DNA of 23,446 nucleotides from an uncultured Nitrospinaceae bacterium (GCA_913043155.1 CAJWLY010000005.1:1-23446); one strand, 5' to 3'; positions 6,011 to 19,948 are shown, numbered from the stretch's first letter. The notes: generated by a model from the letters alone, not told the origin. Program-made: numbers and translations.

Positions 6011-6039
6011 TTGCAGAACGCATGACGGTGTATTAATAT
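6011..6039 (+). promoter_or_regulatory. Putative sigma70-type promoter upstream of holB
   Basis: TTGCAG (6011-6016), 17-nt spacer, TAATAT (6034-6039). About 125 nt upstream of the holB ATG, in a 400-bp divergent intergenic region. Confidence 0.35.
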
Positions 6040-6165
6040 GAACTTGCTGAGGAGGGTGCATTCCCCCCTTCATCGCGACAACTTGTTGATCTATCATATT
6101 TTATCGACTAACCAAAGCAACCGTTCCAATTTCGAAAAAGAAAAGATGGATCGCCATAAACCGCC

Positions 6166-7185
6166 ATGTCATTTTCGCGTATTCTGGGCCAAGACCGGCC
6201 CAAACATATACTTAAAAAGACCCTTCGCAACGGCTGTATCCCGCACGCCTATCTGTTCTACGGTCAGGAGAGCGTAGGCAAAAAACTCGCTGCCGTCGAA
6301 CTGGCTAAGGCCCTCAACTGTGAGGTCTCCGGACCGGTAGATGGATGCGACGGATGCCCTTCCTGCCGCAAGATCGATGAACGCACGCATCCTGATTTTT
6401 TTCTACTCGAACCTGAAAAAAGCAGCCCTTCCGCACGGGACGCCATTCTCAAAATCGATGCGATCCGCGAGCTTCAGAAAAAACTGATCTACCTGCCCTA
6501 CGAGGGGCAAACCAAAGTTGCCATCATTGATTCGGCAGAATGCATGAACCCCCAGGCAGCTAACTCATTTTTAAAAACACTGGAGGAGCCACCGTCCAAA
6601 ACAATCATCATCCTCATCGCCTCCAATCCTTACCAATTGCTCCCAACCCTTGTTTCGCGCTGTCAGAGTATCCGGTTTTACCCGTTAGCAGTGGAAACCA
6701 TTAAAAAAATCATTACAAAACAACTTGAAAGCGAAACGGGTGATGCGCAACCGGAGTTGCTGGAGTTGAGAGCCCAACGGTCGATGGGACAGGTTGCTCG
6801 CGCCATGGAAGAAGACCTTCTCAAAACCTCAGAATACCGGGGAGATTTGATCGGTCTAATAGAACAGGTTTCGTTTAAACGCATGGATCTAGCGTTTCAG
6901 TGGATTAGAACCTATGGGCGAAAAACAGACCGTCTTCAGTCGATCCTAGATGAACTTTTAAATTTGGTGCACGATGCGGCAGTGCTCAAAACGAATCGTA
7001 ACCCTCGGGCGATCCAAAACAAAGACCTGACGCATCTACTGGAAAAGGTGGCAAACCAAAAATCTCTAGCGGCTCTTCTCGATATGTTCGATGCGGTCCA
7101 CCGCACCAAAGTCGCCTTGAAGTACAACGCCAACGCACAACTTTCGCTGGAGAATATGTTTCTCAACTTTTGCGAAGCCGCATAG
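6166..7185 (+). CDS. holB: DNA polymerase III delta' subunit
   Basis: 339 aa. Clamp-loader AAA+ N-terminus (HAYLFYGQESVGKKLAAVELAKALNCE), Zn module CDGCPSCRKI, and box VII-like SRCQSIRF. Confidence 0.85.
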   Translation: MSFSRILGQDRPKHILKKTLRNGCIPHAYLFYGQESVGKKLAAVELAKALNCEVSGPVDGCDGCPSCRKIDERTHPDFFLLEPEKSSPSARDAILKIDAIRELQKKLIYLPYEGQTKVAIIDSAECMNPQAANSFLKTLEEPPSKTIIILIASNPYQLLPTLVSRCQSIRFYPLAVETIKKIITKQLESETGDAQPELLELRAQRSMGQVARAMEEDLLKTSEYRGDLIGLIEQVSFKRMDLAFQWIRTYGRKTDRLQSILDELLNLVHDAAVLKTNRNPRAIQNKDLTHLLEKVANQKSLAALLDMFDAVHRTKVALKYNANAQLSLENMFLNFCEAA

Positions 7186-7203
7186 CATGCAACGGGAATC
7201 ACT

Positions 7204-8073
7204 ATGGATCAAACACTGACCGAAGAACAGGCGCAGCCTAGGAAAGAAAATAGAGGACCTCGTTTCCTCATCGGAATTCGTGTCGGCGACACCCTTAAAT
7301 CGGAATTGTTCGATCCGGTTAAACTGAACCTTCGCGTGGGTATGCAGGTGATGGCGGAAACCAATTATGGGACTCAACTAGGCGTAGTTGCTTCTAATAA
7401 GGTCCCCAACTTAAGTAAAAAGAATAAGAAATTCCAGCGCGTACTCAGAGTCGCCAATGAAAACGATTTTCAGGCTCAAACGAGAAAATTGGACCAGGAA
7501 AAACGGGCTAAGGAGCTGTGTGCGAGAAAAATTCTGGAACTGAAATTGCCGATGAACCTAAGTCGAGTGGTTCATATCCAAAAGCTGAAAAAGACCATTT
7601 TTTTCTTCACTGCCGAAGGCCGCGTAGACTTCCGTCAGCTCATCAAGGAACTGGGATCCGGCCTACGACACCGTATCGAAATGAAACAGGTGGGCGTGCG
7701 CGACGAGGCCCGATCGATTACTGGCTACGGGGTATGTGGGGAAGCCCTTTGCTGTTCTAGTTTCCTTCAGGACTTCACTCCGGTCACCATCCGCATGGCC
7801 AAGGATCAGGGACTCGTCCTCAACCCAACCAAAATTTCAGGGGTATGCGGACGTCTTATGTGTTGCCTGCAGTATGAACATGAAATTTACAAAAATCTCA
7901 TCAAAGACATGCCCAAGGTCAACCGCAAGATCCAGACTCCGGACGGGCCCGGCAAGGTCCTGAACAATGACATCCTGAAGCAAAATATCCTTGTCCGGCT
8001 CGACGATGAAAGTATAATGACCTATCCTTTAGACGAGTTGAGGGAGTTCCTGAAGCCAAAGAACCGGGAATAG
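7204..8073 (+). CDS. ricT: PSP1 C-terminal domain protein (RicT/YaaT-like)
   Basis: 289 aa. Conserved Cys pairs GVCGEALCC and GVCGRLMCCLQYE are typical of PSP1/YaaT. Gene order holB then yaaT is conserved as in Bacillus. Confidence 0.75.
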   Translation: MDQTLTEEQAQPRKENRGPRFLIGIRVGDTLKSELFDPVKLNLRVGMQVMAETNYGTQLGVVASNKVPNLSKKNKKFQRVLRVANENDFQAQTRKLDQEKRAKELCARKILELKLPMNLSRVVHIQKLKKTIFFFTAEGRVDFRQLIKELGSGLRHRIEMKQVGVRDEARSITGYGVCGEALCCSSFLQDFTPVTIRMAKDQGLVLNPTKISGVCGRLMCCLQYEHEIYKNLIKDMPKVNRKIQTPDGPGKVLNNDILKQNILVRLDDESIMTYPLDELREFLKPKNRE

Positions 8074-8372: not shown

Positions 8373-10325
8373 ATGAAAAGTTTAGGAAAAAAGTTTTTTC
8401 TCACAACACCTATCTATTACGTAAACGATGTCCCGCACATCGGGCACGCCTATACAACCATTGCCGCCGATGTGGTGGCGCGCTACAGGCGGCTCGAAGG
8501 GTATGAGGTGATCTTTCTCACAGGAACCGACGAACACGGACAAAAAGTCCTGCAAGCCGCGCGCGAACTCAAGGTGGAACCACAGGAACACGTCGACAAA
8601 TTACACCAGCGATTCAAGGAACTTTGGCTGAGGTTCAATATCTCCAATGATGATTTTATCCGCACCACCGAAGAACGGCACAAGGCTCTCGTTTGCGACA
8701 TCCTACAGCGGTTACACGACAAAGGAGAGATCTATAAGGATAGCTACGAGGGCTGGTACTGCATGCCCTGCGAACGGTTCTGGACAGAAAAAGACCTTAT
8801 CCAAGGAAACTGCCCAGAATGCAAACGCAAGGTAGATAAAATCCAGGAGCACAACTATTTTTTCAAGATGGGGCAGTACCAGGATTGGCTGAAGAATTAC
8901 ATCCGAACGGACGAACGATTCATACAACCGGTGTCACGCCGTAATGAAGTGCTTGGTTTTCTCGACAAACCGCTCGGGGACTTGTGCATCTCGCGCCCGG
9001 TAGAGCGCCTCCCTTGGGGCATCCCCCTGCCCTTCGACAAAAAATACGTCACCTACGTCTGGTTCGACGCACTTATCAACTATATCTCCATTCATGGATC
9101 GCTCAACGAGATCAGGAGAAGCGGATTCTGGCCCGCAAACCATCATCTACTGGGCAAGGACATCCTTACCACCCACGCCGTTTACTGGTCCACAATGCTC
9201 AAGGCGATCGGACTCGATCCGGCGCTCAATCTTTTCGCCCATGGCTGGTGGACGGTGAACGGACAAAAAATGTCGAAGTCCATTGGTAACGTGGTGGAAC
9301 CCAACAGGTTAATTGAACAGTTCGGCGTCGATGCCATTCGGTACTTTCTGATGCGCGAGGTACCGTTTGGGATGGATGGAGACTTTTCGCACAAGGCGCT
9401 GATCGGACGTGTCAATAGCGACCTCGCAAATAACCTGGGAAATCTGCTCAACCGAACGATTAATATGATGAAAAGGTATCATGACTGCATAATTCCCGAA
9501 CCGACTGAACCTAATGAAGACGCTGATCTAAAAAATGAATTCCAAAAGGGAATCGACACTGTTCATAATCTTTATGACAGCCTGGCCTACAATAAAATTC
9601 TCGAGCGCGTCTGGCATTTGATTGACGTGACCAATAAATATATCGACCACCAGGGCCCGTGGACCCTGGTCAAGTCGGAGGACGGAAAAGAACGTCTCGC
9701 AACGGTCATGTACAACACCGCGGAGTGCCTGCGTATAATCGCGATCCTCGTTTATCCGTTCATGCCAAAAAGCGCCGAAACGATGATGCAACAATTGGGA
9801 ATCGAAATTTCCATTAAGGAACAGGGGCTGGAGACAATCAAAACATGGGGTGGATTAAAACCAGGAACAAGGGTGCAGCCGGGAAACCAGCTGTTCCCAC
9901 GCATTGAGGACAAAGAAGCAGAGAAACTTCTCGCTGCCGTAGAGGTAGCCGAAAAGCTGGACTCAAAAAAAGGAGCTGAAGTAATGGAAGAGGGAACTTC
10001 CGAACAGGTGAGCATTGACGAGTTCATGAAAATCGACCTACGAACAGGGAAAATCATTGCAGCAGAAAAGGTCGAAAAATCAAAAAAACTTCTGCAGTTA
10101 AAAGTAGATATTGGCAGCGAGGTGCGCCAAGTGGTTGCGGGTATTGCGGAATGCTACGAACCGGAACAACTGATCGGGCGAACCGTCATTCTTGCCGCCA
10201 ACCTTAAGCCGGCGAAACTGATGGGCGTCGAGTCGCAGGGCATGGTGCTCGCCGCCAGTGAAGGCGGAAATATCACTTTGGCCGGATTCGATCTGGAACC
10301 AGGCAAAGGGATACGAGTGCGATGA
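8373..10325 (+). CDS. metG: Methionyl-tRNA synthetase with C-terminal tRNA-binding (Trbp111/EMAPII-like) domain
   Basis: 650 aa. HIGH motif (PHIGHAYT), KMSKS motif (QKMSKSIG), zinc knuckles CMPCE...CPECKRK, and a C-terminal OB-fold domain (IDLRTGKIIAAEKV...GMVLAAS). Confidence 0.96.
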   Translation: MKSLGKKFFLTTPIYYVNDVPHIGHAYTTIAADVVARYRRLEGYEVIFLTGTDEHGQKVLQAARELKVEPQEHVDKLHQRFKELWLRFNISNDDFIRTTEERHKALVCDILQRLHDKGEIYKDSYEGWYCMPCERFWTEKDLIQGNCPECKRKVDKIQEHNYFFKMGQYQDWLKNYIRTDERFIQPVSRRNEVLGFLDKPLGDLCISRPVERLPWGIPLPFDKKYVTYVWFDALINYISIHGSLNEIRRSGFWPANHHLLGKDILTTHAVYWSTMLKAIGLDPALNLFAHGWWTVNGQKMSKSIGNVVEPNRLIEQFGVDAIRYFLMREVPFGMDGDFSHKALIGRVNSDLANNLGNLLNRTINMMKRYHDCIIPEPTEPNEDADLKNEFQKGIDTVHNLYDSLAYNKILERVWHLIDVTNKYIDHQGPWTLVKSEDGKERLATVMYNTAECLRIIAILVYPFMPKSAETMMQQLGIEISIKEQGLETIKTWGGLKPGTRVQPGNQLFPRIEDKEAEKLLAAVEVAEKLDSKKGAEVMEEGTSEQVSIDEFMKIDLRTGKIIAAEKVEKSKKLLQLKVDIGSEVRQVVAGIAECYEPEQLIGRTVILAANLKPAKLMGVESQGMVLAASEGGNITLAGFDLEPGKGIRVR

Positions 10326-11713
10326 TCATAGATACGCATGCCCACCTCGACATGGACACATATGACGAGGACCGCTCGGACGTGATTCAACGCGCCCGCG
10401 ACGGCGGGGTCGATTACATCCTTAACATTGGTTGCGACATCGAAAGCAGTCTGCGTTCGCGGGAACTGGCTGAGCGTTACGATTTTATTTACGCTACCGC
10501 TGGCGTTCATCCTCATGACGTAAAAAACATCAATGGACATACCTACGATCACCTCAGGGAACTGCTCTCGCACCCGAAGATGCTCGCGCTTGGGGAAACC
10601 GGCCTCGACTTTTTCAAGAATTACTCGCCCCAGGACCAGCAAAAGGAACATTTCCGCAAACAGATTGAGTTGGCGCGCGAAGTGGGTAAGCCCATCATCG
10701 TCCATAGTCGTGATGCGAATAATGACATCACCAGCATTCTCTCCGATCACTTCCCGAAAGATCGGTCCGCGCGATCAGGGATCTTCCATTGTTTCTCTGG
10801 AGACCAAGAACTGGCCGACCGGGCGCTAGAGATGGGATTCTACATCTCGTTCTCTGGTTCGGTCACCTTCAAGAAATCGGATGAACTGCGTACAGTGGCA
10901 AAAACAATCCCTGCCGATCGCCTGTTCGTCGAAACGGATTGTCCATTCCTCGCACCGGTCCCGAAACGCGGTAAACGGAACGAACCGTCCTACGTCAATC
11001 ACATTGCCCAACGGATTGCCGAAATACGCGGGCTCACCGTTGAAGACCTTGCACGTACCACCGCCCTCAACTTCTTCGAACTGTTCGGCATCGGCAAGGA
11101 AGCTAAGACCGGGACCGTGTCTTACCAAATACGCAACTCACTCTATCTCAATCTGACGACACGATGCACCGCCGATTGCTCATTCTGTACCCGCTTGACG
11201 CGTCCGATCGTCCAAGGCTACAACCTCCAACTCGACCGAGAACCGACAACTGAAGAGGTGTGGGAATCGATCGACGACTGCACAAAATATGATGAAATTG
11301 TTTTCTGTGGATATGGCGAACCGACGTTGAGGCTCGACGTCGTCAAGGAAGTAGCAAAAAAAATCAAAACTGCAGGGGGACGCGTTAGGCTGAACACTAA
11401 CGGACACGGCAACGCAATCAACAAACGCAATATCCTGCCCGAACTCAAGGGACTGGTTGATGCGATTTCAATCAGCCTCAACGCCGACACTCCTGAGGCC
11501 TACGATGAAATCGTCCGCCCCCTACCCGGCTTGCGCGAAGGCCTCTACGACAAGGTCAAGGAGTTCATCGAGGAATCCAAAAAATACATTCCGAAAGTGC
11601 AGGCCACCATCGTAACGCATCAGGACGGCGTCAATGAAACAAAATGTGAAGATATGGCCTGCAATGAGTTCGATATCGACTACCGGCCCCGACGCTACAA
11701 CATCGTGGGTTAA
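10322..11713 (+). CDS. tatD: TatD-family metal-dependent hydrolase fused to a C-terminal radical SAM domain
   Basis: 463 aa in one continuous frame. Residues 1 to ~250 are TatD (IDTHAHLD, HSRDA, FVETDCPFLAPVP). Residues ~255 to 463 carry CTADCSFC (CX3CX2C) and the glycine-rich FCGYGEPTL SAM motif. The start overlaps the metG stop (ATGA). Confidence 0.85.
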   Translation: MIIDTHAHLDMDTYDEDRSDVIQRARDGGVDYILNIGCDIESSLRSRELAERYDFIYATAGVHPHDVKNINGHTYDHLRELLSHPKMLALGETGLDFFKNYSPQDQQKEHFRKQIELAREVGKPIIVHSRDANNDITSILSDHFPKDRSARSGIFHCFSGDQELADRALEMGFYISFSGSVTFKKSDELRTVAKTIPADRLFVETDCPFLAPVPKRGKRNEPSYVNHIAQRIAEIRGLTVEDLARTTALNFFELFGIGKEAKTGTVSYQIRNSLYLNLTTRCTADCSFCTRLTRPIVQGYNLQLDREPTTEEVWESIDDCTKYDEIVFCGYGEPTLRLDVVKEVAKKIKTAGGRVRLNTNGHGNAINKRNILPELKGLVDAISISLNADTPEAYDEIVRPLPGLREGLYDKVKEFIEESKKYIPKVQATIVTHQDGVNETKCEDMACNEFDIDYRPRRYNIVG

Positions 11714-11771
11714 GCTCTCCGTTTCATCTCGCACAGAGCCTCAAAAACGCAGAAAAAAGGGGGGACAAATA

Positions 11772-12164
11772 ATGAACTGGATTCCTACAGGCGCGGTTTT
11801 CAGCGGGTTCAGCGTACTGCTTGGAGCAGTCGGGGCGCACGGACTCAAAAATATTCTCTCCGAACAAAAACTCAAGGCTTTCCACACGGCAACTCAGTAC
11901 ATGGGATACCACGGTCTAGCACTGATACTCGTCGGTATTCTTTGCCTGCATCTTGGAGCCGACAGGGCGAAAGCACTTAAGAAAGTCGGCATCCTGTTTC
12001 TGGCGGGTATTCTCATGTTCTCTGGAAGTATCTATATCCTCACCTTCGATGGGCCCCGTTTATTTGGTCCGGTCACCCCACTCGGCGGACTCTCCTTTAT
12101 AGCCGGCTGGTTCACCTTCGCCTGGGTGATGCGTGGGCATTCCAATAAAAACTATAATCCCTAA
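11772..12164 (+). CDS. DUF423/YgdD-family small inner-membrane protein
   Basis: 130 aa from an ATG preceded by an AAAAAAGGGGGG Shine-Dalgarno. GAVGAHGL...AFHTATQYMGYHGLAL...FSGSIYIL...VTPLGGLSFIAGW closely parallels E. coli YgdD. The ORF-track N-terminal extension (11634) overlaps the previous gene and is rejected. Confidence 0.82.
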   Translation: MNWIPTGAVFSGFSVLLGAVGAHGLKNILSEQKLKAFHTATQYMGYHGLALILVGILCLHLGADRAKALKKVGILFLAGILMFSGSIYILTFDGPRLFGPVTPLGGLSFIAGWFTFAWVMRGHSNKNYNP

Positions 12165-12190: not shown

Positions 12191-13039
12191 TTACCCATTC
12201 TCTCGCCCCAGCCTTTTTCCTACAGGAGAGAAGATATCTTTGGAACGTTTCCGGTAGGAGTACCACACAAGCAAGGCCAATATTCCCGTGGCAGAGGCGG
12301 ACGGGACAAGCGCGACACGATCCCAAGCCGGACGAAAATCAATCTCTCCTCCGATCTCACCAGTATAGTGCTTCAGCATTTCGGCATATTCGATCATGAG
12401 ATGCACGGGATAAACGGTCTCGGTGCTCTCGGCCGAACGATGCACTGGCACCTCGAATGATTTTTCCTCACCGCCGCGAATGGTGAATCCCATCATCTGC
12501 CCAAACTCGTCCGCGACCAGTCCAGGGGGAAGAAGAAGCATCAGCCGAACATTTTTAAACGACGACGAGTTATTACGGAGAAAAATTTTTAGTAGCGATC
12601 CATCTCCCTGCCGGGTCGTTCGGATTTCTCCATCGATAACTGACTTCACTGGCTCGCGGAAATAAAATGAGTCGGTATGAATCTGCGTAAGTGGCGCTTC
12701 GTCTTTGGCGCCGGTTTTATATTCCGCCATAACCACGAGTGGGTAGCGTCCCGTTCTCAACACCGGCGGATGGTCGGTGTTCTCCAGCGTGACCCCCTGC
12801 CCCGGATCAAGTCTGACGATCTTATCCATCATCACCATGCTGTGATGAAAATGGAACATAGGGTGTACATCATAGAGCGGCTCACGTCCGTTATTCTTCA
12901 CCGTCAAACGAACCCACACCCTACCGTCATCATCCACCAACGCCTGCGTGGTTAGTTGCAGCGGGGACGCCCACACAGAAGAGGAAAACCCAGCTGTTAA
13001 AAAAAACACCAGCAATAGACCTGCGCAAAGTTTCTCCAT
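12191..13039 (-). CDS. Exported hypothetical protein: signal peptide, two beta-rich (Ig/CARDB-like) repeats, C-terminal transmembrane anchor
   Basis: Start taken at the third in-frame Met (MEKLCAGLLLVFFLTAGFSSSVWA^SP), which gives a plausible signal peptide. The ORF-track start is 13075. Two similar segments (VRLTVKNNGREPLYDV and LKIFLRNNSSSFKNVRLML). C-terminal hydrophobic ATGILALLVWYSY followed by RKRSK. Confidence 0.55.
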   Translation of the reverse strand: MEKLCAGLLLVFFLTAGFSSSVWASPLQLTTQALVDDDGRVWVRLTVKNNGREPLYDVHPMFHFHHSMVMMDKIVRLDPGQGVTLENTDHPPVLRTGRYPLVVMAEYKTGAKDEAPLTQIHTDSFYFREPVKSVIDGEIRTTRQGDGSLLKIFLRNNSSSFKNVRLMLLLPPGLVADEFGQMMGFTIRGGEEKSFEVPVHRSAESTETVYPVHLMIEYAEMLKHYTGEIGGEIDFRPAWDRVALVPSASATGILALLVWYSYRKRSKDIFSPVGKRLGRENG

Positions 13040-13146
13040 AGAAGGTGATTCTATCATGGTTTCACACGGAGCCATCTTGCTACCTGTCTATTGGGGCCGA
13101 AAATTGGTATACTTATCCAAACCGTAACACATGTAGGGGGTGGGTC

Positions 13147-13908
13147 ATGGATGGCGCAATCGTTGCCCTAATAATACTGGGTCTGCTTCTCTTCAGCGCA
13201 CTCAAAATTCTGCGTGAATACGAACGTGGTGTCATTTTTCTTCTGGGCCGATTCTGGAAAGTGAAGGGTCCGGGACTCATCATCGTCATTCCCGGAATTC
13301 AGAAGATGATCAAGGTAAGCCTGCGCACGGTAGTCATGGACGTACCACCGCAGGACATCATCACCCGTGACAATGTCACAGTTAAGGTGAACGCGGTTTT
13401 ATATTTCCGCGTCATCGAGGCCAGAAAGGCCATCATCGAGGTCGAAGATTACCTTTACGCCACCTCCCAGCTTGCGCAAACAACGTTACGAAGTATCCTG
13501 GGCCAAAGCCAGTTGGACGATCTGCTTTCGAAGCGCGACGAGATCAACGCCCACCTACAGAAAGCGATCGATGAACAAACCGAGCCCTGGGGCGTAAAGG
13601 TCGCAAACGTGGAAGTCAAAAACGTCGACCTACCCCAGGAGATGCAGCGTGCCATCGCCAAACAGGCCGAAGCGGAGCGGGAACGTCGAGCCAAAGTCAT
13701 CAACGCCAAGGGCGAATACGAAGCGGCAGAAAAACTGAGCCAGGCCGCGGACACCATCGGGGCGCACCCTCCGGCCCTGCAACTGAGATTCCTGCAAACC
13801 CTGCTAGACATCTCCACCGACCGCAACACCACCATGTTCGTGCCCATCCCGCTGGAATTGTTCGAGGGCTTTTCCAAACAGAAAAAGCCAGGCTCCGATG
13901 GCCTCTGA
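13147..13908 (+). CDS. SPFH/band-7 (stomatin/QmcA-like) membrane protein
   Basis: N-terminal transmembrane helix ([19 protein letters not shown]), then an SPFH core ([31 protein letters not shown]...) and a C-terminal coiled coil ([15 protein letters not shown]). ATG at 13147 preceded by GGGGGTGGG. The GTG at 13045 in the ORF track is rejected. Confidence 0.85.
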
Positions 13909-14032
13909 CCATAACCCGCATCAGGCCCTCGAAATAAACTATTAGGGGCCCACCCTTACTTCCCTTTTGCTTGGGGTTTGCCAGAGGATGCATTAGAATA
14001 AATAAGGATACGATATTCATCGAGCCGCTCCA

Positions 14033-17000
14033 ATGGAACCTCACGCCTTCATTGAGAATTTCCTGAACCGAGTACGCCGCCTGCATACGCGGACCCAGTT
14101 ACTTCACGGGTTCAACATAATAATAGCTTATATTTCAATAAGTTATCTAACAGCCAACCTGCTGGCTTGGTTTTATCCCGCAGCCCATGAATGGTCCTGG
14201 TTGGTGGGAGCCCTGTTTCTAGGGGGATTGGGTTACATAGTCTTCCGCTACATCCTCCAGATCGGATTCGTGTCCTTTTCGCTTGACGATGCGGCGCTGT
14301 TGACGGAATTGCGGCACCCCCACTTAAACAATTCTCTCATCAATTCGTGCCAGTTGGCGCGTCGGCTGAAGCGCCCTGAAGCAAAAAAACAATCATCCCT
14401 GGAATTTATCCACGAACTGCACCGCCGTACCCGCCTGACCATCGAAGCAATCGATCCAAGATCGGTAATTGACCGGAGTGACTTGGTGTCAAGCCGCAAC
14501 TGGTTTGCTGGGGCTTTAGGTTCGCTTATTCTTCTGGCGTTGTTTCTTCCCGATTTTCTAACACAGGGATACAACCGCTGGATGCCTCCCCCTAAACCGC
14601 ACCAAGCCGCAATTGACAAATCGGTAAAACCAGACCTTTTGGAACCCACTGCCGCTAAAACTGCCTATGCGATCGACTCCTTGAGTCTGACTTTTCACTT
14701 TCCAGCGTATACGAGAATGAAGACAAAAACTGTAAAATCTTCTGACGGAAAGATCCACGTCCTTCCCGGAAGCGAGGTGAAAATTTCAGCCCGCACCAAC
14801 CTCCCCACAACCGGGGGCGACCTGATATTTAACGGCAAGGACAACTTCGTCATGAGCATGGAGGATCCAGCGAACCTTAACGGACGCCTCCTTATAAAGG
14901 AAAAAGGCTTCTACCAATTCCGAATCAAAGATGCGGTTGGAAAAAAACATCTACTCGCGCAAAAGTATCCGGTAACGCTCGGCCAAGACCGCTCGCCCAG
15001 CATCGTTTTATTCCTCGCCAACCCAAAACCTGTTTACTTCAACACCGACAAGGTCCAGCTGTTTTATGAAGGGAGCGACGACTTCGGTATCGGGTCCGTC
15101 GAACTGGTGGCCTACATCAACGGAAAAATCCAGCGCTTTCCGGTCAAACGGTTCAAAGAACACGAGAAGGAAGCCAAGGGCGACTACACTTGGGCCCTAT
15201 CGCAAATCGAGCTTCATCCGGGTGACGAGGTCCAGTACTACCTTGAGATTAAAGACAACGACAACGTACGAGGTCCGAACACCGGCCAATCCGAGGCATA
15301 CACCTTCACCATTTTCGACTCAGCAAAAGAACTGGAGAGCTTAATCGCCTTACAGGAAGAGTTGACCGAGAAAATGATCGCACTCCTGGCAACGGGGCTA
15401 GTTAAAGGCGCGTCGCTAGATAACTCGGTCGATGATCCGATGCAGTGGGAAAAACTTTTCACCACCAGCACCGACGCCCTGATCGAGATCGTAAGCCTGG
15501 CCCAACGCATTCGCGACCGGGGAAAAACCATCGACCGGTTCCCGCAACCTTACCTCAACCTGCTCAATAACGTTGCCTCCGGTCTGGCACGCATTCGACA
15601 GGAGCAGATTGAAGCAATCAACCAGATTCGGGACACAATCCATAAACCAACGCAGGCAAAATTTGACTCCTCTTCCCCTTACCGCACCATCAACAACCGA
15701 ATGATCGGTCACCTGGAAAACGATATTCTCTTCTTGGTCAAAATGACCAATCGGCAGAAGTTGGACCGGGTGGTGGGTCTGGAAGAGAAGCTCAACAACC
15801 TGACCCAAACCCTGCGCCAAGAGTTTGAGAAACTGAAGGACCGCAAAACCAAACCACGCCCAAACGAGTTGAAGAGCAAAATTAAACAGATACGCGACAC
15901 CCTGCAAAAAATCATGGACCAGCTGGCCCGCCAGACCCAGTCCATGCCCGACGAATTTTTAAATTCGGCCGCCTTCAAACGCCTGAGCATGGACTCGTTC
16001 GCCGCTTCGCTGGAACGGATGATGGACATGGTGAACCGCGGCCAGTTCGAGGAAGCAATGGAGGAGTTGAAAAAAGTCTCTGAGGACCTGCAACAGCTAG
16101 CCAATCAATTCAACCAAGCACGGTCGGAAATGGACGACCTTCTCGATATGCAGATCGCGGAAGCGCTGGACGACTCCATCGAGAAGTTGGATAAGCTGGA
16201 AGCTCGACAACAGAGGCTGGTTGAAGACACCACCCAAATCAATCAGGAACTGAGGGAACAACAATCAAAACGGTTTGAAAAGGAGCTGGACAATTTCTTT
16301 AAAGAACTCCAACACAACGTAGATGCCATCCGCTCTCTTTTCAAAGAGGACGAAGAGTATCTCAACAGGCACCGTGTGATGAAGCAACTTGAAAAATTGA
16401 TGGCTCAAGAAACAAAACTCAACCGAAAAATAAATGAACTAGGCCAGAAAACCGTCGATTCGAGCCTCACAGAGAGGTTGGATCAGAATTTCCAAACCCT
16501 CAACGAAGCGCGCAAAGAACTTTCCAAATTGACCCATGAAAAAGACTCTCTGCGTGTGAATGAGTTTCAGCGGTTCAGGGAAGGGTTGCCGCAGCTTATG
16601 AAAAAATACGACACGCTCCGAGAACTAGCCAGGTTGCGGGATCTCACCGAATTCGGCAACCTGTTCAAAAAAGCCTACCCCGAAGTGTTTCGCTGGCAAA
16701 ATAACCTGCGCACCACGCCCAATCGGAGGGAGGACATTGGTGAACAATTGGACAACGACCTAAAGCAGGTCACCCGGCTCAACAACGAAATTTCAAAAAA
16801 GTTAGGATCGATGATGCGATCGATCCGCAAGAACTACGATTCATCCATCACCGAAAAACAAAAAAAGAAACTGGGACAAATGGCTCAACAAGAAAGTCAG
16901 ATGCGCAAGGAAGTAGAGGAGTTGACACGCCGGTTTGACCGTTTAAACCAAGAAAACCCGATGGTCCCATCCCAGCTTTCGAAGCAGATGGGGCAAACGG

Positions 17001-17368
17001 GGCGTCGCATGAAACGCGCCGAGCGAAACCTCAAAGAACAGAATATCCGCGAAAGCATAGAGGCAGAAAACCATGCACTTAAGGGATTGCGCGAAACCCG
17101 TGATCTACTCAAGGAAATGAAAAACTCTAACGGCCAAGCCCAACAGGCGCAACAGAAAACACCGAACCGACTCGGCACTGGCAGCCGACTTGACTCACGG
17201 CGTGGTGGAGGAGCACGTATGCGGAATGAGCGCGTGCTGTTGCCTTCCGAAGATCAATATCAGGTACCCAGAGAATTTCGCGAGGAAATTCTCAACGCAA
17301 TGAAAAAGCAAACGCCGAAAGACTATCAGCGCATGGTCATGGAATATTACAAGAACCTAGTGAAATGA
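14033..17368 (+). CDS. Giant membrane-anchored coiled-coil protein (possibly DUF4175/TIGR02302-like), function unknown
   Basis: 1111 aa. Has 2-3 N-terminal transmembrane helices, a beta-rich region at roughly residues 200-420, about 600 aa of charged heptad-like helix (E/K/Q/R/L rich), and a Q/G-rich low-complexity tail (NGQAQQAQQKTPNRLGTGSRLDSRRGGGARMR). An in-frame stop lies 27 nt upstream of the ATG. Contiguous with the MoxR locus. Confidence 0.75.
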   Translation: MEPHAFIENFLNRVRRLHTRTQLLHGFNIIIAYISISYLTANLLAWFYPAAHEWSWLVGALFLGGLGYIVFRYILQIGFVSFSLDDAALLTELRHPHLNNSLINSCQLARRLKRPEAKKQSSLEFIHELHRRTRLTIEAIDPRSVIDRSDLVSSRNWFAGALGSLILLALFLPDFLTQGYNRWMPPPKPHQAAIDKSVKPDLLEPTAAKTAYAIDSLSLTFHFPAYTRMKTKTVKSSDGKIHVLPGSEVKISARTNLPTTGGDLIFNGKDNFVMSMEDPANLNGRLLIKEKGFYQFRIKDAVGKKHLLAQKYPVTLGQDRSPSIVLFLANPKPVYFNTDKVQLFYEGSDDFGIGSVELVAYINGKIQRFPVKRFKEHEKEAKGDYTWALSQIELHPGDEVQYYLEIKDNDNVRGPNTGQSEAYTFTIFDSAKELESLIALQEELTEKMIALLATGLVKGASLDNSVDDPMQWEKLFTTSTDALIEIVSLAQRIRDRGKTIDRFPQPYLNLLNNVASGLARIRQEQIEAINQIRDTIHKPTQAKFDSSSPYRTINNRMIGHLENDILFLVKMTNRQKLDRVVGLEEKLNNLTQTLRQEFEKLKDRKTKPRPNELKSKIKQIRDTLQKIMDQLARQTQSMPDEFLNSAAFKRLSMDSFAASLERMMDMVNRGQFEEAMEELKKVSEDLQQLANQFNQARSEMDDLLDMQIAEALDDSIEKLDKLEARQQRLVEDTTQINQELREQQSKRFEKELDNFFKELQHNVDAIRSLFKEDEEYLNRHRVMKQLEKLMAQETKLNRKINELGQKTVDSSLTERLDQNFQTLNEARKELSKLTHEKDSLRVNEFQRFREGLPQLMKKYDTLRELARLRDLTEFGNLFKKAYPEVFRWQNNLRTTPNRREDIGEQLDNDLKQVTRLNNEISKKLGSMMRSIRKNYDSSITEKQKKKLGQMAQQESQMRKEVEELTRRFDRLNQENPMVPSQLSKQMGQTGRRMKRAERNLKEQNIRESIEAENHALKGLRETRDLLKEMKNSNGQAQQAQQKTPNRLGTGSRLDSRRGGGARMRNERVLLPSEDQYQVPREFREEILNAMKKQTPKDYQRMVMEYYKNLVK

Positions 17369-18933
17369 AGCGCATCGTTTACATCCTGCTGGCATTATCC
17401 CTTGAGCTGACAGCCATCGGCCCGGCAAGTGGGACGCCCACAGCCACCCCCCCTGACGAAGTATTCGCCGGGTATAAGCTGATCGAACAGTGGCGCATTG
17501 AAGAGGCCGGTACCCTGGCCGAAAAATTGCTGGACAAATATCCCGAATCGGGAGACGCCCATTTCCTTAGTGCGCGGATCGAATTTTTAAGAGGAAACTA
17601 TAAATACGCCAAAAAAATTCTCGGCCGCGTTGGGGACAACCACGCTCCAGTCCGCGAATTCAAAACACTGGTCCAGGACACCCATGATGCGACAAAATTG
17701 TTCATCTCCCGGGAGTCGGAACATTTCATCTTTCACTTCGAGCAGGGCCCCGATGAAATTCTAGTACATTACGCTGAAGAGGTTTTGGAAAAATCATATG
17801 AAGTCCTCGGCAAGCTCCTAAATTACTACCCTCAACAAAAAGTACTGGTCGAATTCTATCCTGACCGGAAACCTTTTTCCCGCATCTCTCCGCTAACGCT
17901 CCAAGACATCCTCACATCAGGCACGGTGGCGCTTTGCAAGTACAACCGCATCATGATGATCTCCCCGGGGTCCCTAGTGCGCGGCTATAACTGGATGGAC
18001 ACACTGAGCCATGAATACACCCATTACCTCATGACGAGAAAAAGTCGTAACAACCTTCCGCTGTGGATGCATGAGGGAATCGCAAAATTCCTTGAAGGGC
18101 GATGGCGAAATAGCGAAGAATACCTAACCCCCATCATGGAGACGATACTTGCAGGCGGATTGAACAACGATTACCTGATCTCCCTCGACAGCATGATGCC
18201 TTCGCTGGCCAAGCTAAAAACAACCGAAGACGTACAATTAGCCTACGCTGAAGTGTCGACTATGATTGAGTACCTAGCAGAACTCCGGGGGGATGAGGTG
18301 ATCGCCGCCATTCTTGACGACTTGGCCGGAGGCGAACCGTTCGATTCAGCTTTTACAAGAAGGTTGGGCATGGATCTCGACGACTTTCAAAAAGAGTGGA
18401 AGCAATTTGCAAAGCAAAAAAATCTAAAAACCGTTCCCGGACTCAAAATTCCGGGAATTCGCTTCAGAGCTGATCGCTCTATAACAGAAGAGGACAGCAA
18501 AGAGTATCGCGAGGTCGGCGCACGCAAAACCCAGGACTTGACTTTTCTAGGAGACATCCTCAGGTCGCGAGACTTTAACCGGGCGGCGATCGTAGAGTAT
18601 CGTCGTGCCATTGACCAAGCGAAAACCTTTTCTCCCATTCTGCACAACAAACTTGCGAAGACCTTTTTTCTGACACGAGAGTTTGATCAGGCCGAGGCAC
18701 TCCTGAAAAAAAGCCTCAGTCATTATCCCATGTTCCATACCACCCTCTCTAGCCTGGGTGAACTCTATTTCGAAACCGGAAACATGGAAAAATCGCTCGA
18801 CTTCTACGAACAAGCAGTGCGGGTCAACCCTTTCAATCCGTTCGCGCACATCAGGCTGATGGCAATCTACCAAAAGCTGGGGCTGAACAAAGAAAAAGAA
18901 TTGCAGGCAAAACTGTTTGGATATATAGATTGA
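17365..18933 (+). CDS. Secreted HEXXH...E (Peptidase_MA_2-like) plus TPR-repeat protein
   Basis: 522 aa. N-terminal signal-like segment MKRIVYILLALSLELTAIGPASG. Zinc motif LSHEYTHYLM, followed by E in WMHEGIAKF 17 residues later. C-terminal TPR-like repeats (...YFETGNMEKSLDFYEQAVRVNPFNPFAHIRLMAIYQKLG). ATGA overlap with the upstream gene. Confidence 0.78.
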   Translation: MKRIVYILLALSLELTAIGPASGTPTATPPDEVFAGYKLIEQWRIEEAGTLAEKLLDKYPESGDAHFLSARIEFLRGNYKYAKKILGRVGDNHAPVREFKTLVQDTHDATKLFISRESEHFIFHFEQGPDEILVHYAEEVLEKSYEVLGKLLNYYPQQKVLVEFYPDRKPFSRISPLTLQDILTSGTVALCKYNRIMMISPGSLVRGYNWMDTLSHEYTHYLMTRKSRNNLPLWMHEGIAKFLEGRWRNSEEYLTPIMETILAGGLNNDYLISLDSMMPSLAKLKTTEDVQLAYAEVSTMIEYLAELRGDEVIAAILDDLAGGEPFDSAFTRRLGMDLDDFQKEWKQFAKQKNLKTVPGLKIPGIRFRADRSITEEDSKEYREVGARKTQDLTFLGDILRSRDFNRAAIVEYRRAIDQAKTFSPILHNKLAKTFFLTREFDQAEALLKKSLSHYPMFHTTLSSLGELYFETGNMEKSLDFYEQAVRVNPFNPFAHIRLMAIYQKLGLNKEKELQAKLFGYID

Positions 18934-18961
18934 TAATAGTTAATTGATTCAGGGAGATCTT

Positions 18962-19948
18962 ATGAAAGATCTGGAGTTGGCCCAAGAGTTATTGAGTGCG
19001 AAAAAGCGCGTCACCGGCGAAATACGAAAAGTGATCGTGGGGCAGGATGAGGTGATCGAAAACCTGTTGATTGCGTTGTTCTGCAAAGGACACTGCCTTT
19101 TTGTTGGCGTCCCCGGGCTGGCCAAAACCTTGTTGGTAAGCACTCTAGCCCGGGTACTGAATCTCAACTTCAGCAGGATCCAGTTCACACCCGACCTGAT
19201 GCCCTCAGACATCACCGGAACGGATATCCTTTACCAAGATCAGGCCACTAACAAGCGCGAATTCCGGTTCATCAAGGGGCCAGTTTTTGCCCACATCATT
19301 CTCGCGGACGAGATTAATCGCACACCACCAAAGACCCAGGCTGCCCTACTCCAAGCCATGCAGGAGCAGCAGGTGACCGTCGGCGGGAACACCTACCAAC
19401 TCGACCAACCCTTCCAAGTCTTCGCCACACAAAATCCGATTGAGCACGAAGGCACCTATCCCTTGCCCGAAGCACAATTGGACCGGTTCATGTTCCTAGT
19501 CAACGTTAGCTACCCCACCATGGAGCAGGAGGTTAACATTGCCATATCCACCACTTCGGGATTCCACCCGGACCTGGACGTAGTTCTGGATGCCGCACAT
19601 GTTCGTGAGTTGCAAACGCTGGTTCCGCGCGTTCCCGTGTCAGAACACGTCGCGGAATATGCGGTGCGGCTGGTGCAAAGCTCGCGCCCGAGCAAGAATG
19701 GGGCGACACCGGACTTCATAAACGAATGGATCGACTGGGGAGCGGGTCCGCGCGCGTCGCAATACCTTATTCTTGGGGCAAAGGCCCACGCCCTCATGGA
19801 CAACCGCGTAACCACAACCGTGGATGACATCAAAAACGTCGCCCGGCAGGTGCTCGAACACCGGCTCATTCTCAACTTCAAAGCCGAAGCTGAAAATATC
19901 ACCACCACCGATATTATCGAAAAACTTCTACAGGCAGTTAAAGCGTAA
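18962..19948 (+). CDS. MoxR-family AAA+ ATPase
   Basis: Walker A GVPGLAKT, Walker B ILADEINR, sensor ATQNP, helix-2 insert. These are classic MoxR/RavA features. ATG at 18962 with an AGGGAGA Shine-Dalgarno 5 nt upstream. The TTG at 18944 in the ORF track is rejected. Confidence 0.9.
   Translation: MKDLELAQELLSAKKRVTGEIRKVIVGQDEVIENLLIALFCKGHCLFVGVPGLAKTLLVSTLARVLNLNFSRIQFTPDLMPSDITGTDILYQDQATNKREFRFIKGPVFAHIILADEINRTPPKTQAALLQAMQEQQVTVGGNTYQLDQPFQVFATQNPIEHEGTYPLPEAQLDRFMFLVNVSYPTMEQEVNIAISTTSGFHPDLDVVLDAAHVRELQTLVPRVPVSEHVAEYAVRLVQSSRPSKNGATPDFINEWIDWGAGPRASQYLILGAKAHALMDNRVTTTVDDIKNVARQVLEHRLILNFKAEAENITTTDIIEKLLQAVKA

Follow-up and report, generated by a model that had tools for sequence, protein, structure and literature searches.

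Among bacterial gene clusters that still lack a known biochemical function, the MRP-type MoxR/Bat/Cmd operons are some of the most widespread. In these operons, as in Rhizobium RL3499-RL3502, an MRP-type MoxR ATPase is encoded together with DUF58, BatA/BatB VWA and TPR proteins, and in many phyla DUF4159 and DUF4175 proteins are added. According to a published summary (PMC5700661), the bat/cmd operon phenotypes include envelope and morphology phenotypes reported for Rhizobium cmd mutants. Characterised MoxR ATPases generally act with VWA partners, as in NorQ/NorD and RavA/ViaA. Here we analyse a stretch of 23,446 nucleotides from an uncultured Nitrospinaceae bacterium (GCA_913043155.1 CAJWLY010000005.1:1-23446; hereafter the window), in which an SPFH protein, a large DUF4175-family membrane protein, a secreted putative metallopeptidase and a MoxR ATPase are encoded in succession by four open reading frames (ORFs) on the plus strand. 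Among named organisms, those nearest to the source of the window are Candidatus Nitromaritima and uncultured Nitrospinaceae. We think it likely that the last three genes represent the Nitrospinota form of the widespread Bat/Cmd-family envelope operon, that the SPFH gene lies outside this module, and that the three proteins would operate as a scaffold, a peptidase and a MoxR ATPase acting on them.

The case for a three-gene unit comes from gene order. Homologous loci were collected by scanning a peptidase alignment (A4) against one genome per GTDB species; 290 genomes matched, and the best 80 loci (numbered with the prefix L) were used and annotated with phmmer and hmmsearch. Sixty-five of these 80 loci are of Nitrospinota type, two of them bearing a Nitrospirae label. 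The DUF4175-peptidase-MoxR trio (BIG and PEP being our shorthand for the first two members) can be assessed in 63, the remaining two being cut by contig ends, and all counts of gene overlap and SPFH position rest on 55 assessable Nitrospinota loci. The trio is complete in all 63, with MoxR always downstream of the peptidase gene at a median gap of 15 bp, and a 4-bp overlap joins the DUF4175 gene to the peptidase gene in 54 of the 55. This 4-bp coupling recurs in at least four phylum-level groups, and L015 is the only locus with upstream sequence in which the DUF4175 gene does not directly precede the peptidase gene. Across Nitrospinota this is a single-copy locus whose surroundings are stable and of housekeeping type (ATP synthase, metG, sucCD). 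The trio is also present in the complete chromosome of 'Deltaproteobacteria bin23' (L003), in an unrelated neighbourhood, where the three proteins appear to have diverged together from those of the window (DUF4175, peptidase and MoxR being 25%, 38% and 65% identical, respectively). The DUF4175-peptidase pair extends further, to Myxococcota, anammox Planctomycetota and 'Deltaproteobacteria' metagenome-assembled genomes (MAGs). Within the closest DUF4175 subfamily, a peptidase homologue with HExxH...E is the next gene in 6/6 sampled contexts; two representatives of a sister subfamily lack a following peptidase homologue. Since the adjacency of the last three genes is conserved in 63/63 Nitrospinota loci and in other phyla, it goes far beyond chance, and on these comparative grounds the functional unit is three genes (DUF4175, peptidase and MoxR), not four. 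The original prediction had proposed a four-gene adjacency and, within it, a module of scaffold, metallopeptidase and ATPase. The trio at its core is truly conserved and coupled, in Nitrospinota and beyond, but the SPFH adjacency is not conserved in this way, SPFH is no component of the module, and the trio does not stand alone as a new MoxR system.

Two of the trio loci that score as Nitrospinota-like, L041 and L046, come from MAGs labelled 'Nitrospirae bacterium'; the large protein of L041 scores 973 bits and this locus also has an SPFH gene. To judge from these similarities, both labels are probably wrong.

What follows the trio in other lineages places it within a larger operon. In L086, the packed order DUF4175-peptidase-MoxR-DUF58-BatA/VWA_2-DUF4159 is extended by one further gene, and the peptidase profile gives 412 bits on the L086 protein. 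Four Myxococcota loci (L049, L064, L081 and L084) have the order DUF4175-peptidase-MoxR-DUF58-BatA-like, with a DUF58 match of 1.9e-43 plus VWA_2 in L049 (Pfam), and L015 has peptidase-MoxR-DUF58-BatA-DUF4159. In the sister DUF4175 subfamily (L087), the DUF4175 gene is the last of a DUF58-BatA/VWA-DUF4159-GATase1_like-DUF4175 cluster. Since the orthologous operons in Myxococcota, L086 and L015 continue into DUF58-BatA, the Nitrospinota locus appears to correspond to the 5' half of a more extensive MoxR/DUF58/VWA envelope operon of Bat/Cmd type, either shortened or split, and not to a system that rests on other principles. The locus includes a DUF4175 gene, and its genes are orthologous to those of complete clusters; DUF58, BatA-N/VWA and DUF4159 genes are missing locally. 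The contrast with Bat-type operons that had been drawn for this MoxR locus therefore applies to the locus itself, which has none of those partners, but does not extend to its orthologous operons, which carry DUF58-BatA/VWA-DUF4159.

The local lack of these partners holds at every level at which they were sought. Pfam and NCBIfam gave no match to VWA, DUF58, BatA or DUF4159 at E<0.1 in the four proteins, and neither did additional hidden Markov models (HMMs) built for local search from the DUF58, BatA and DUF4159 proteins of related operons. These HMM searches bear out the original prediction that DUF58 and VWA genes are absent from the locus. Among the families it had singled out, PF13485 is found in the peptidase, VWA, DUF58 and PF13709/DUF4159 are absent, and TIGR02302 stays below its cut-off. 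Its further observation that the partners of MoxR have no VWA signature also stands, and neither the large protein nor the TPR protein hides such a domain. For the large protein, a cryptic VWA or DUF58 domain is ruled out by HMMs, by two fold searches and by two AlphaFold2 models, one of aa (amino acids) 1-470 with a predicted local distance difference test (pLDDT) score of 79 and one of the full-length protein on a 38-sequence alignment (pLDDT 80.8); its all-alpha region has no beta strand and therefore no VWA fold. For the peptidase, it is ruled out by HMM searches and domain coverage, as the Pfam domains fill residues 40-102, 185-349 and 395-510 and therefore leave no room for a VWA domain. 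Small apparent DUF58 matches over the MoxR 3' ends of L037, L040 and L044 were judged to be artefacts of an over-extended alternative-frame ORF of L015.

The large protein matches DUF4175 in Pfam at 3.4e-14 (52.3 bits against a cut-off of 27.3) and the NCBIfam model TIGR02302 (aProt_lowcomp) at 26 bits, below the trusted cut-off of 394. By these scores, it is a member of the TIGR02302 superfamily that falls outside that alphaproteobacterial equivalog. With a profile of its N-terminal 470 residues, the number of representative proteins recovered is 8524 (E ≤ 0.001), of which 3610 also pass E ≤ 1e-10; judged from this count, DUF4175 is a very large family, and most of its representatives are 1000-1150 aa long, with an architecture common to about 8500. 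The protein had been described as a giant coiled-coil protein. It is indeed a huge membrane protein, but it is better described as three transmembrane (TM) helices, a helical domain of about 80 aa, two immunoglobulin (Ig)-like domains and an all-alpha region of about 600 aa (Table 1). The arginine-rich N-tail (RVRRLHTR) suggests a cytoplasmic N-terminus. By the positive-inside rule, this tail and the basic helical domain between TM2 and TM3 would be cytoplasmic, and everything after TM3 would be periplasmic. The helical domain, in which A87, A88, L89, L90, P96, N100 and L108 are invariant in Nitrospinota, would on the same rule be the sole sizeable part of the large protein within reach of a cytoplasmic MoxR. 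In the AlphaFold2 models, a disordered linker connects TM3 to the Ig-like domains, which contain the family-wide motifs NPKPVY, DDFGI and KDNDNV-GPN-GQSE. The all-alpha region comprises about 17 helices of 20-75 residues and zero beta strands (DSSP on the full-length model); it is rich in L, E, K, R and Q and gives only weak matches of coiled-coil type, for example to SMC, Rad50 and LmuB. The C-terminal end (aa 1034-1111; 17126-17365) consists of a disordered Gly/Arg/Gln-rich stretch (pLDDT <50) and then a 45-aa two-helix motif. This motif is the most conserved segment of the family (majority fraction 0.66) and is found in distant representatives, its family-wide form being V-x-I-P...Y-x-V-P-x-E-F-R...Y-Y-x-x-L. 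The C-terminal end perhaps resembles a tethered docking peptide for the TPR domains of the peptidase.

The peptidase begins with a hydrophobic, signal-like segment of Sec type (aa 4-22) and matches Peptidase_MA_2 at 2.1e-15 (57.5 bits against a cut-off of 32.4; Pfam), with TPR repeats flanking the peptidase domain on both sides (Pfam). An HExxH motif with a downstream glutamate as the third zinc ligand, together with an HMM match above the gathering score, places it among the clan MA gluzincins. H216, E217, H220 and E237 do not vary among the nine members of alignment A4, one of which is the 38%-identical bin23 protein. The HExxH...E pattern is likewise kept in the homologues of L086, L089 and L090, where the residue preceding the glutamate can vary (WLQEG in L086). 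The third protein matches AAA_3 (PF07726) at 6e-63 and AAA_lid_2 (PF17863) at 1e-16 (Pfam), and the Cytophaga hutchinsonii MoxR structure (PDB 2R44) at 3e-82. Its Walker motifs are intact, as are the sensor 1 and arginine-finger motifs (ATQNP, LDRF); by domains and motifs it is a member of the MRP (MoxR-proper) subfamily, although no DUF58 or VWA gene adjoins it. The MoxRs of DUF58-less and DUF58-containing operons are colinear and 55-65% identical (55-64% between the MoxR of the window and those of L086 and the four Myxococcota loci), and their comparison gives no sign of an altered partner interface.

Table 1 Features of the four genes, with positions in the window, strand and basis of assignment
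Feature	Position	Strand	Basis
SPFH/stomatin-like membrane protein, 253 aa, neighbour outside the module	13147..13908	+	Band_7 1.2e-38
DUF4175-family inner-membrane protein, 1111 aa, core component 1	14033..17368	+	Pfam PF13779
TM1-TM2 hairpin, aa 29-75	14117..14257	+	hydropathy peaks aa 29-47 and 57-75; AlphaFold2 helices
Predicted cytoplasmic small helical domain, aa 76-157, linking TM2 to TM3	14258..14503	+	AlphaFold2 helices 84-145, pLDDT ~87-92
TM3, aa 158-176	14504..14560	+	hydropathy 2.01; AlphaFold2 helix 149-171
Two tandem Ig-like beta-sandwich domains, aa 214-428	14672..15316	+	AlphaFold2 models
All-alpha region, aa 430-1034	15320..17134	+	DSSP of full-length model
Conserved C-terminal motif, aa 1067-1111, VLLPSEDQYQVPREFREEIL..MK...P..Y......YYK.L	17231..17365	+	follows disordered Gly/Arg-rich segment
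Secreted Peptidase_MA_2/TPR putative metallopeptidase, 522 aa, core component 2	17365..18933	+	Pfam PF13485
Putative zinc-binding/catalytic motif H216-E-Y-T-H220...W-M-H-E237-G	18010..18078	+	motif located in sequence
MRP-type MoxR AAA+ ATPase, 328 aa, component 3	18962..19948	+	AAA_3 + AAA_lid_2
Walker A GVPGLAKT	19106-19129	+	located in MoxR sequence
Walker B ILADEINR	19298-19321	+	located in MoxR sequence

Taken together, these features point to a mechanism in which each component would have a distinct role. The DUF4175 protein would be anchored in the inner membrane by its three TM helices, with the helical domain of about 80 aa facing the cytoplasm and the two Ig-like domains and the helical scaffold of about 600 aa projecting into the periplasm. 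These periplasmic regions may bind, position or gate the TPR-metallopeptidase, which would act on envelope proteins in envelope maintenance or quality control. On the other side of the membrane, MoxR would use ATP, by way of the DUF4175 protein's cytoplasmic parts, for remodelling or assembling the complex. It may do so with the help of a DUF58/VWA adaptor encoded at another site in the genome; action without such an adaptor is less likely. The theme of envelope integrity is borrowed by analogy from the Rhizobium cmd and Bat operons. Several points weigh against this reading. The physical link of the three proteins, their topology and the contact between MoxR and the cytoplasmic domain are all things that we infer. 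The match to the peptidase domain is moderate (57 bits), and the protein is a putative protease. A search of 10 kb on either side of the trio in about 63 Nitrospinota species found no DUF58, BatA or DUF4159 gene, as would be expected of true loss as well as of a split operon. In anammox Planctomycetota (Kuenenia, Brocadia and others; L008-L011) and in the MAGs L012 and L013, no MoxR gene lies within 10 kb of the DUF4175-peptidase pair, so that the pair may work without a mechanistic tie to the ATPase. Finally, a lineage-specific functional link of the SPFH protein to the trio is possible, its gene being adjacent and co-directional in 29 of 55 loci.

In the anammox genomes, the pair is followed by a conserved protein of about 510 aa in place of MoxR (L008 11857-13398, L009 11695-13242 and L010 7149-8672). 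A dCache_1 sensor domain (1.6e-17) in the L009 copy is a hint that the regulatory input differs in the anammox lineage.

An alternative that we regard as rather unlikely is that MoxR is truly independent of VWA proteins here: Nitrospinota and bin23 would have lost DUF58, BatA and DUF4159, and the DUF4175 protein's cytoplasmic domain would be a direct target of MoxR, which would thereby control the periplasmic TPR-metallopeptidase across the membrane. The empty flanks of the Nitrospinota trio are consistent with such a loss, as is the bin23 chromosome locus, where DUF58, BatA and DUF4159 were not found either. The short gap that ties MoxR to the pair and the lack of a cryptic VWA fold in the large protein, or of a VWA HMM match in the peptidase, fit it as well. 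However, the Nitrospinota MoxR is colinear with, and 60-65% identical to, MoxRs that are followed by DUF58, and nothing suggests an altered partner interface; the anammox operons, in which the pair stands apart from MoxR, show that such operons do split, making trans-encoded partners plausible; and characterised MoxR ATPases generally act with VWA partners (NorQ/NorD, RavA/ViaA). The boldest form of this alternative, in which a MoxR without a VWA/DUF58 adaptor engages the DUF4175 helical domain and switches the periplasmic TPR-metallopeptidase on and off, is in our view a speculative and rather improbable proposal. If it were true, the locus would encode an ATP-driven trans-membrane device for protease control and the first VWA-independent MoxR mechanism.

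We consider it very improbable that all four genes form one system in which the HExxH/TPR peptidase is enclosed by an SPFH membrane cage, the DUF4175 protein serves as scaffold and MoxR has the role of chaperone. The arrangement that inspired this idea is real: the four co-directional genes are where the original prediction had placed them, with a 124-bp spacer between the SPFH stop and the ATG of the large gene, a shared ATGA (17365-17368) between the large gene and the peptidase gene, and 28 bp, including an AGGGAG Shine-Dalgarno sequence, between the peptidase stop and the MoxR ATG, for which a TTG at 18944 is an alternative start. SPFH proteins are paired with proteases elsewhere, as in HflK/C-FtsH and stomatin-NfeD, and here too the gene of an SPFH protein with one N-terminal TM helix lies beside a protease-like gene, a likeness of position only. 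Unlike in those pairs, there is no FtsH or NfeD partner in the window (Pfam), where the only related match is a weak one to NfeD_membrane (0.003) in the DUF423 protein, and conservation of the module does not extend to the SPFH gene; the HflK and HflC equivalog models also score far below their cut-offs on the SPFH protein. The SPFH gene lies upstream on the same strand in 29 of the 55 loci, at gaps of 46-574 bp, but it is absent from 20-21, elsewhere in one, and downstream of MoxR on the opposite strand in four (L020, L022, L024 and L028). No SPFH gene was found in any non-Nitrospinota locus inspected. In L062, the closest relative in the genome collection (92-94% nucleotide identity), a clean 735-bp deletion of window positions 13079-13813 (L062:3618-3621) removes the start and about five sixths of the SPFH gene. 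The gene's final ~95 bp are still there, and the flanks, with the 124-bp spacer and the trio, are undamaged. Either a natural knockout or an artefact of MAG assembly could explain this. With the SPFH gene absent, inverted or deleted across loci, and never seen outside Nitrospinota, the idea of a cage corralling the protease is therefore without comparative support.

Instead of following the trio, the SPFH gene travels with two other genes, and by gene order it is part of a separate lineage-specific block beside the trio, made up of DUF423, a 294-aa protein and SPFH. In the four inverted loci, SPFH retains its arrangement with the divergent 294-aa gene and DUF423; in L016, L053 and L082, the 294-aa gene is present and SPFH absent. 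The 294-aa protein (12191-13075, minus strand), encoded divergently from SPFH and conserved across Nitrospinota, has an N-terminal signal/TM segment and a C-terminal TM helix, and gives no Pfam, NCBIfam or PADLOC match. Its continued association with SPFH in the inverted blocks makes it a candidate for the true partner of the SPFH protein. The DUF423 ORF as called (11634-12164, plus strand; 176 aa) overlaps the 3' end of the gene before it. Its orthologue in L001, a 3.25-Mb Nitrospinales genome, is called at 145 aa, and the true start is therefore probably an internal Met near MNWIPTG. The preceding gene (10322-11713, plus strand) encodes a 463-aa fusion of a TatD-type hydrolase domain and a radical-SAM domain, shares a 4-bp overlap with the metG stop, and is found in L001 as well (6017-7408).

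Scans for regulatory sites gave six promoter-like sites, against 6.8 expected from shuffled controls, and 20 terminator-like sites against 12.1 expected. A weak hairpin at 13943-13958 is the sole terminator-like site in the spacer between SPFH and DUF4175, and inspection of the upstream regions revealed no clear shared promoter. The tRNA and Rfam scans gave no matches.

A role in anti-phage defence or conflict as a ternary MoxR-vWA system, which consists of a vWA co-chaperone, a third component and effector domains (Kaur et al. 2020; PMC7159879), is barely credible here: MoxR ATPases and peptidases do occur in such systems and there is a weak Pfam match to bpMoxR (2e-10), but the AAA_3 score far exceeds it, PADLOC gives only weak coiled-coil-type matches in the large protein (LmuB, JetC and ZorA; best 2.3e-05), Pfam finds no VWA, VMAP, iSTAND, beta-propeller, FtsH third component or effector domain, the locus is single-copy in its stable housekeeping context, and the proteins have export or membrane signals, unlike those of intracellular conflict systems.

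The locus had also been put forward as an uncharacterised, novel system. No paper describing the module, be it the DUF4175-peptidase pairing or a Peptidase_MA_2-MoxR association, was found in the literature searched, where mentions of DUF4175 include an Acinetobacter AdvA study; yet the module belongs to a known, if poorly understood, family of MoxR operons. What is new at the descriptive level is the coupled DUF4175-peptidase pair and its separation from DUF58/VWA in Nitrospinota. The pair gives rise to a concrete, testable hypothesis about one branch of these operons: that it serves regulated proteolysis in the periplasm or quality control of the envelope. Nitrospinota are the main marine nitrite oxidisers, and their trio offers a natural minimal system in which to ask if MoxR depends on a VWA adaptor. 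The analysis also removes the tempting but unsupported interpretation of an SPFH cage.

Like NorQ/NorD, CbbQ/CbbO and RavA/ViaA, the trio includes a MoxR-class ATPase with intact Walker motifs and a presumed role in remodelling or assembly; unlike in those systems, no VWA gene is adjacent, and the presumed client is a membrane or periplasmic complex instead of an enzyme in the cytoplasm or membrane that requires insertion of metal. BepA (YfgC) of E. coli is a periplasmic M48 zinc metallopeptidase with a C-terminal TPR domain that functions in outer-membrane protein quality control. The fusion of a secreted HExxH zinc peptidase to TPR repeats in the trio makes envelope protein quality control a plausible analogy, but the domain here is Peptidase_MA_2, with no M48 match (Pfam), the TPRs lie on both sides of the catalytic domain, and the gene is obligatorily coupled to a DUF4175 gene and usually to MoxR. 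The L087-type cluster differs in having its DUF4175 gene last, whereas here this gene comes first and is translationally coupled to the peptidase gene. Measured against the Bat/Cmd operons themselves, the Nitrospinota locus is without local DUF58, BatA/VWA and DUF4159, and the gluzincin peptidase domain, intact in its TPR protein, is not among the components described for Bat/Cmd operons; what the two have in common is the MoxR subfamily, the DUF4175 family and a TPR envelope protein, with all parts other than the ATPase being membrane or periplasmic proteins.

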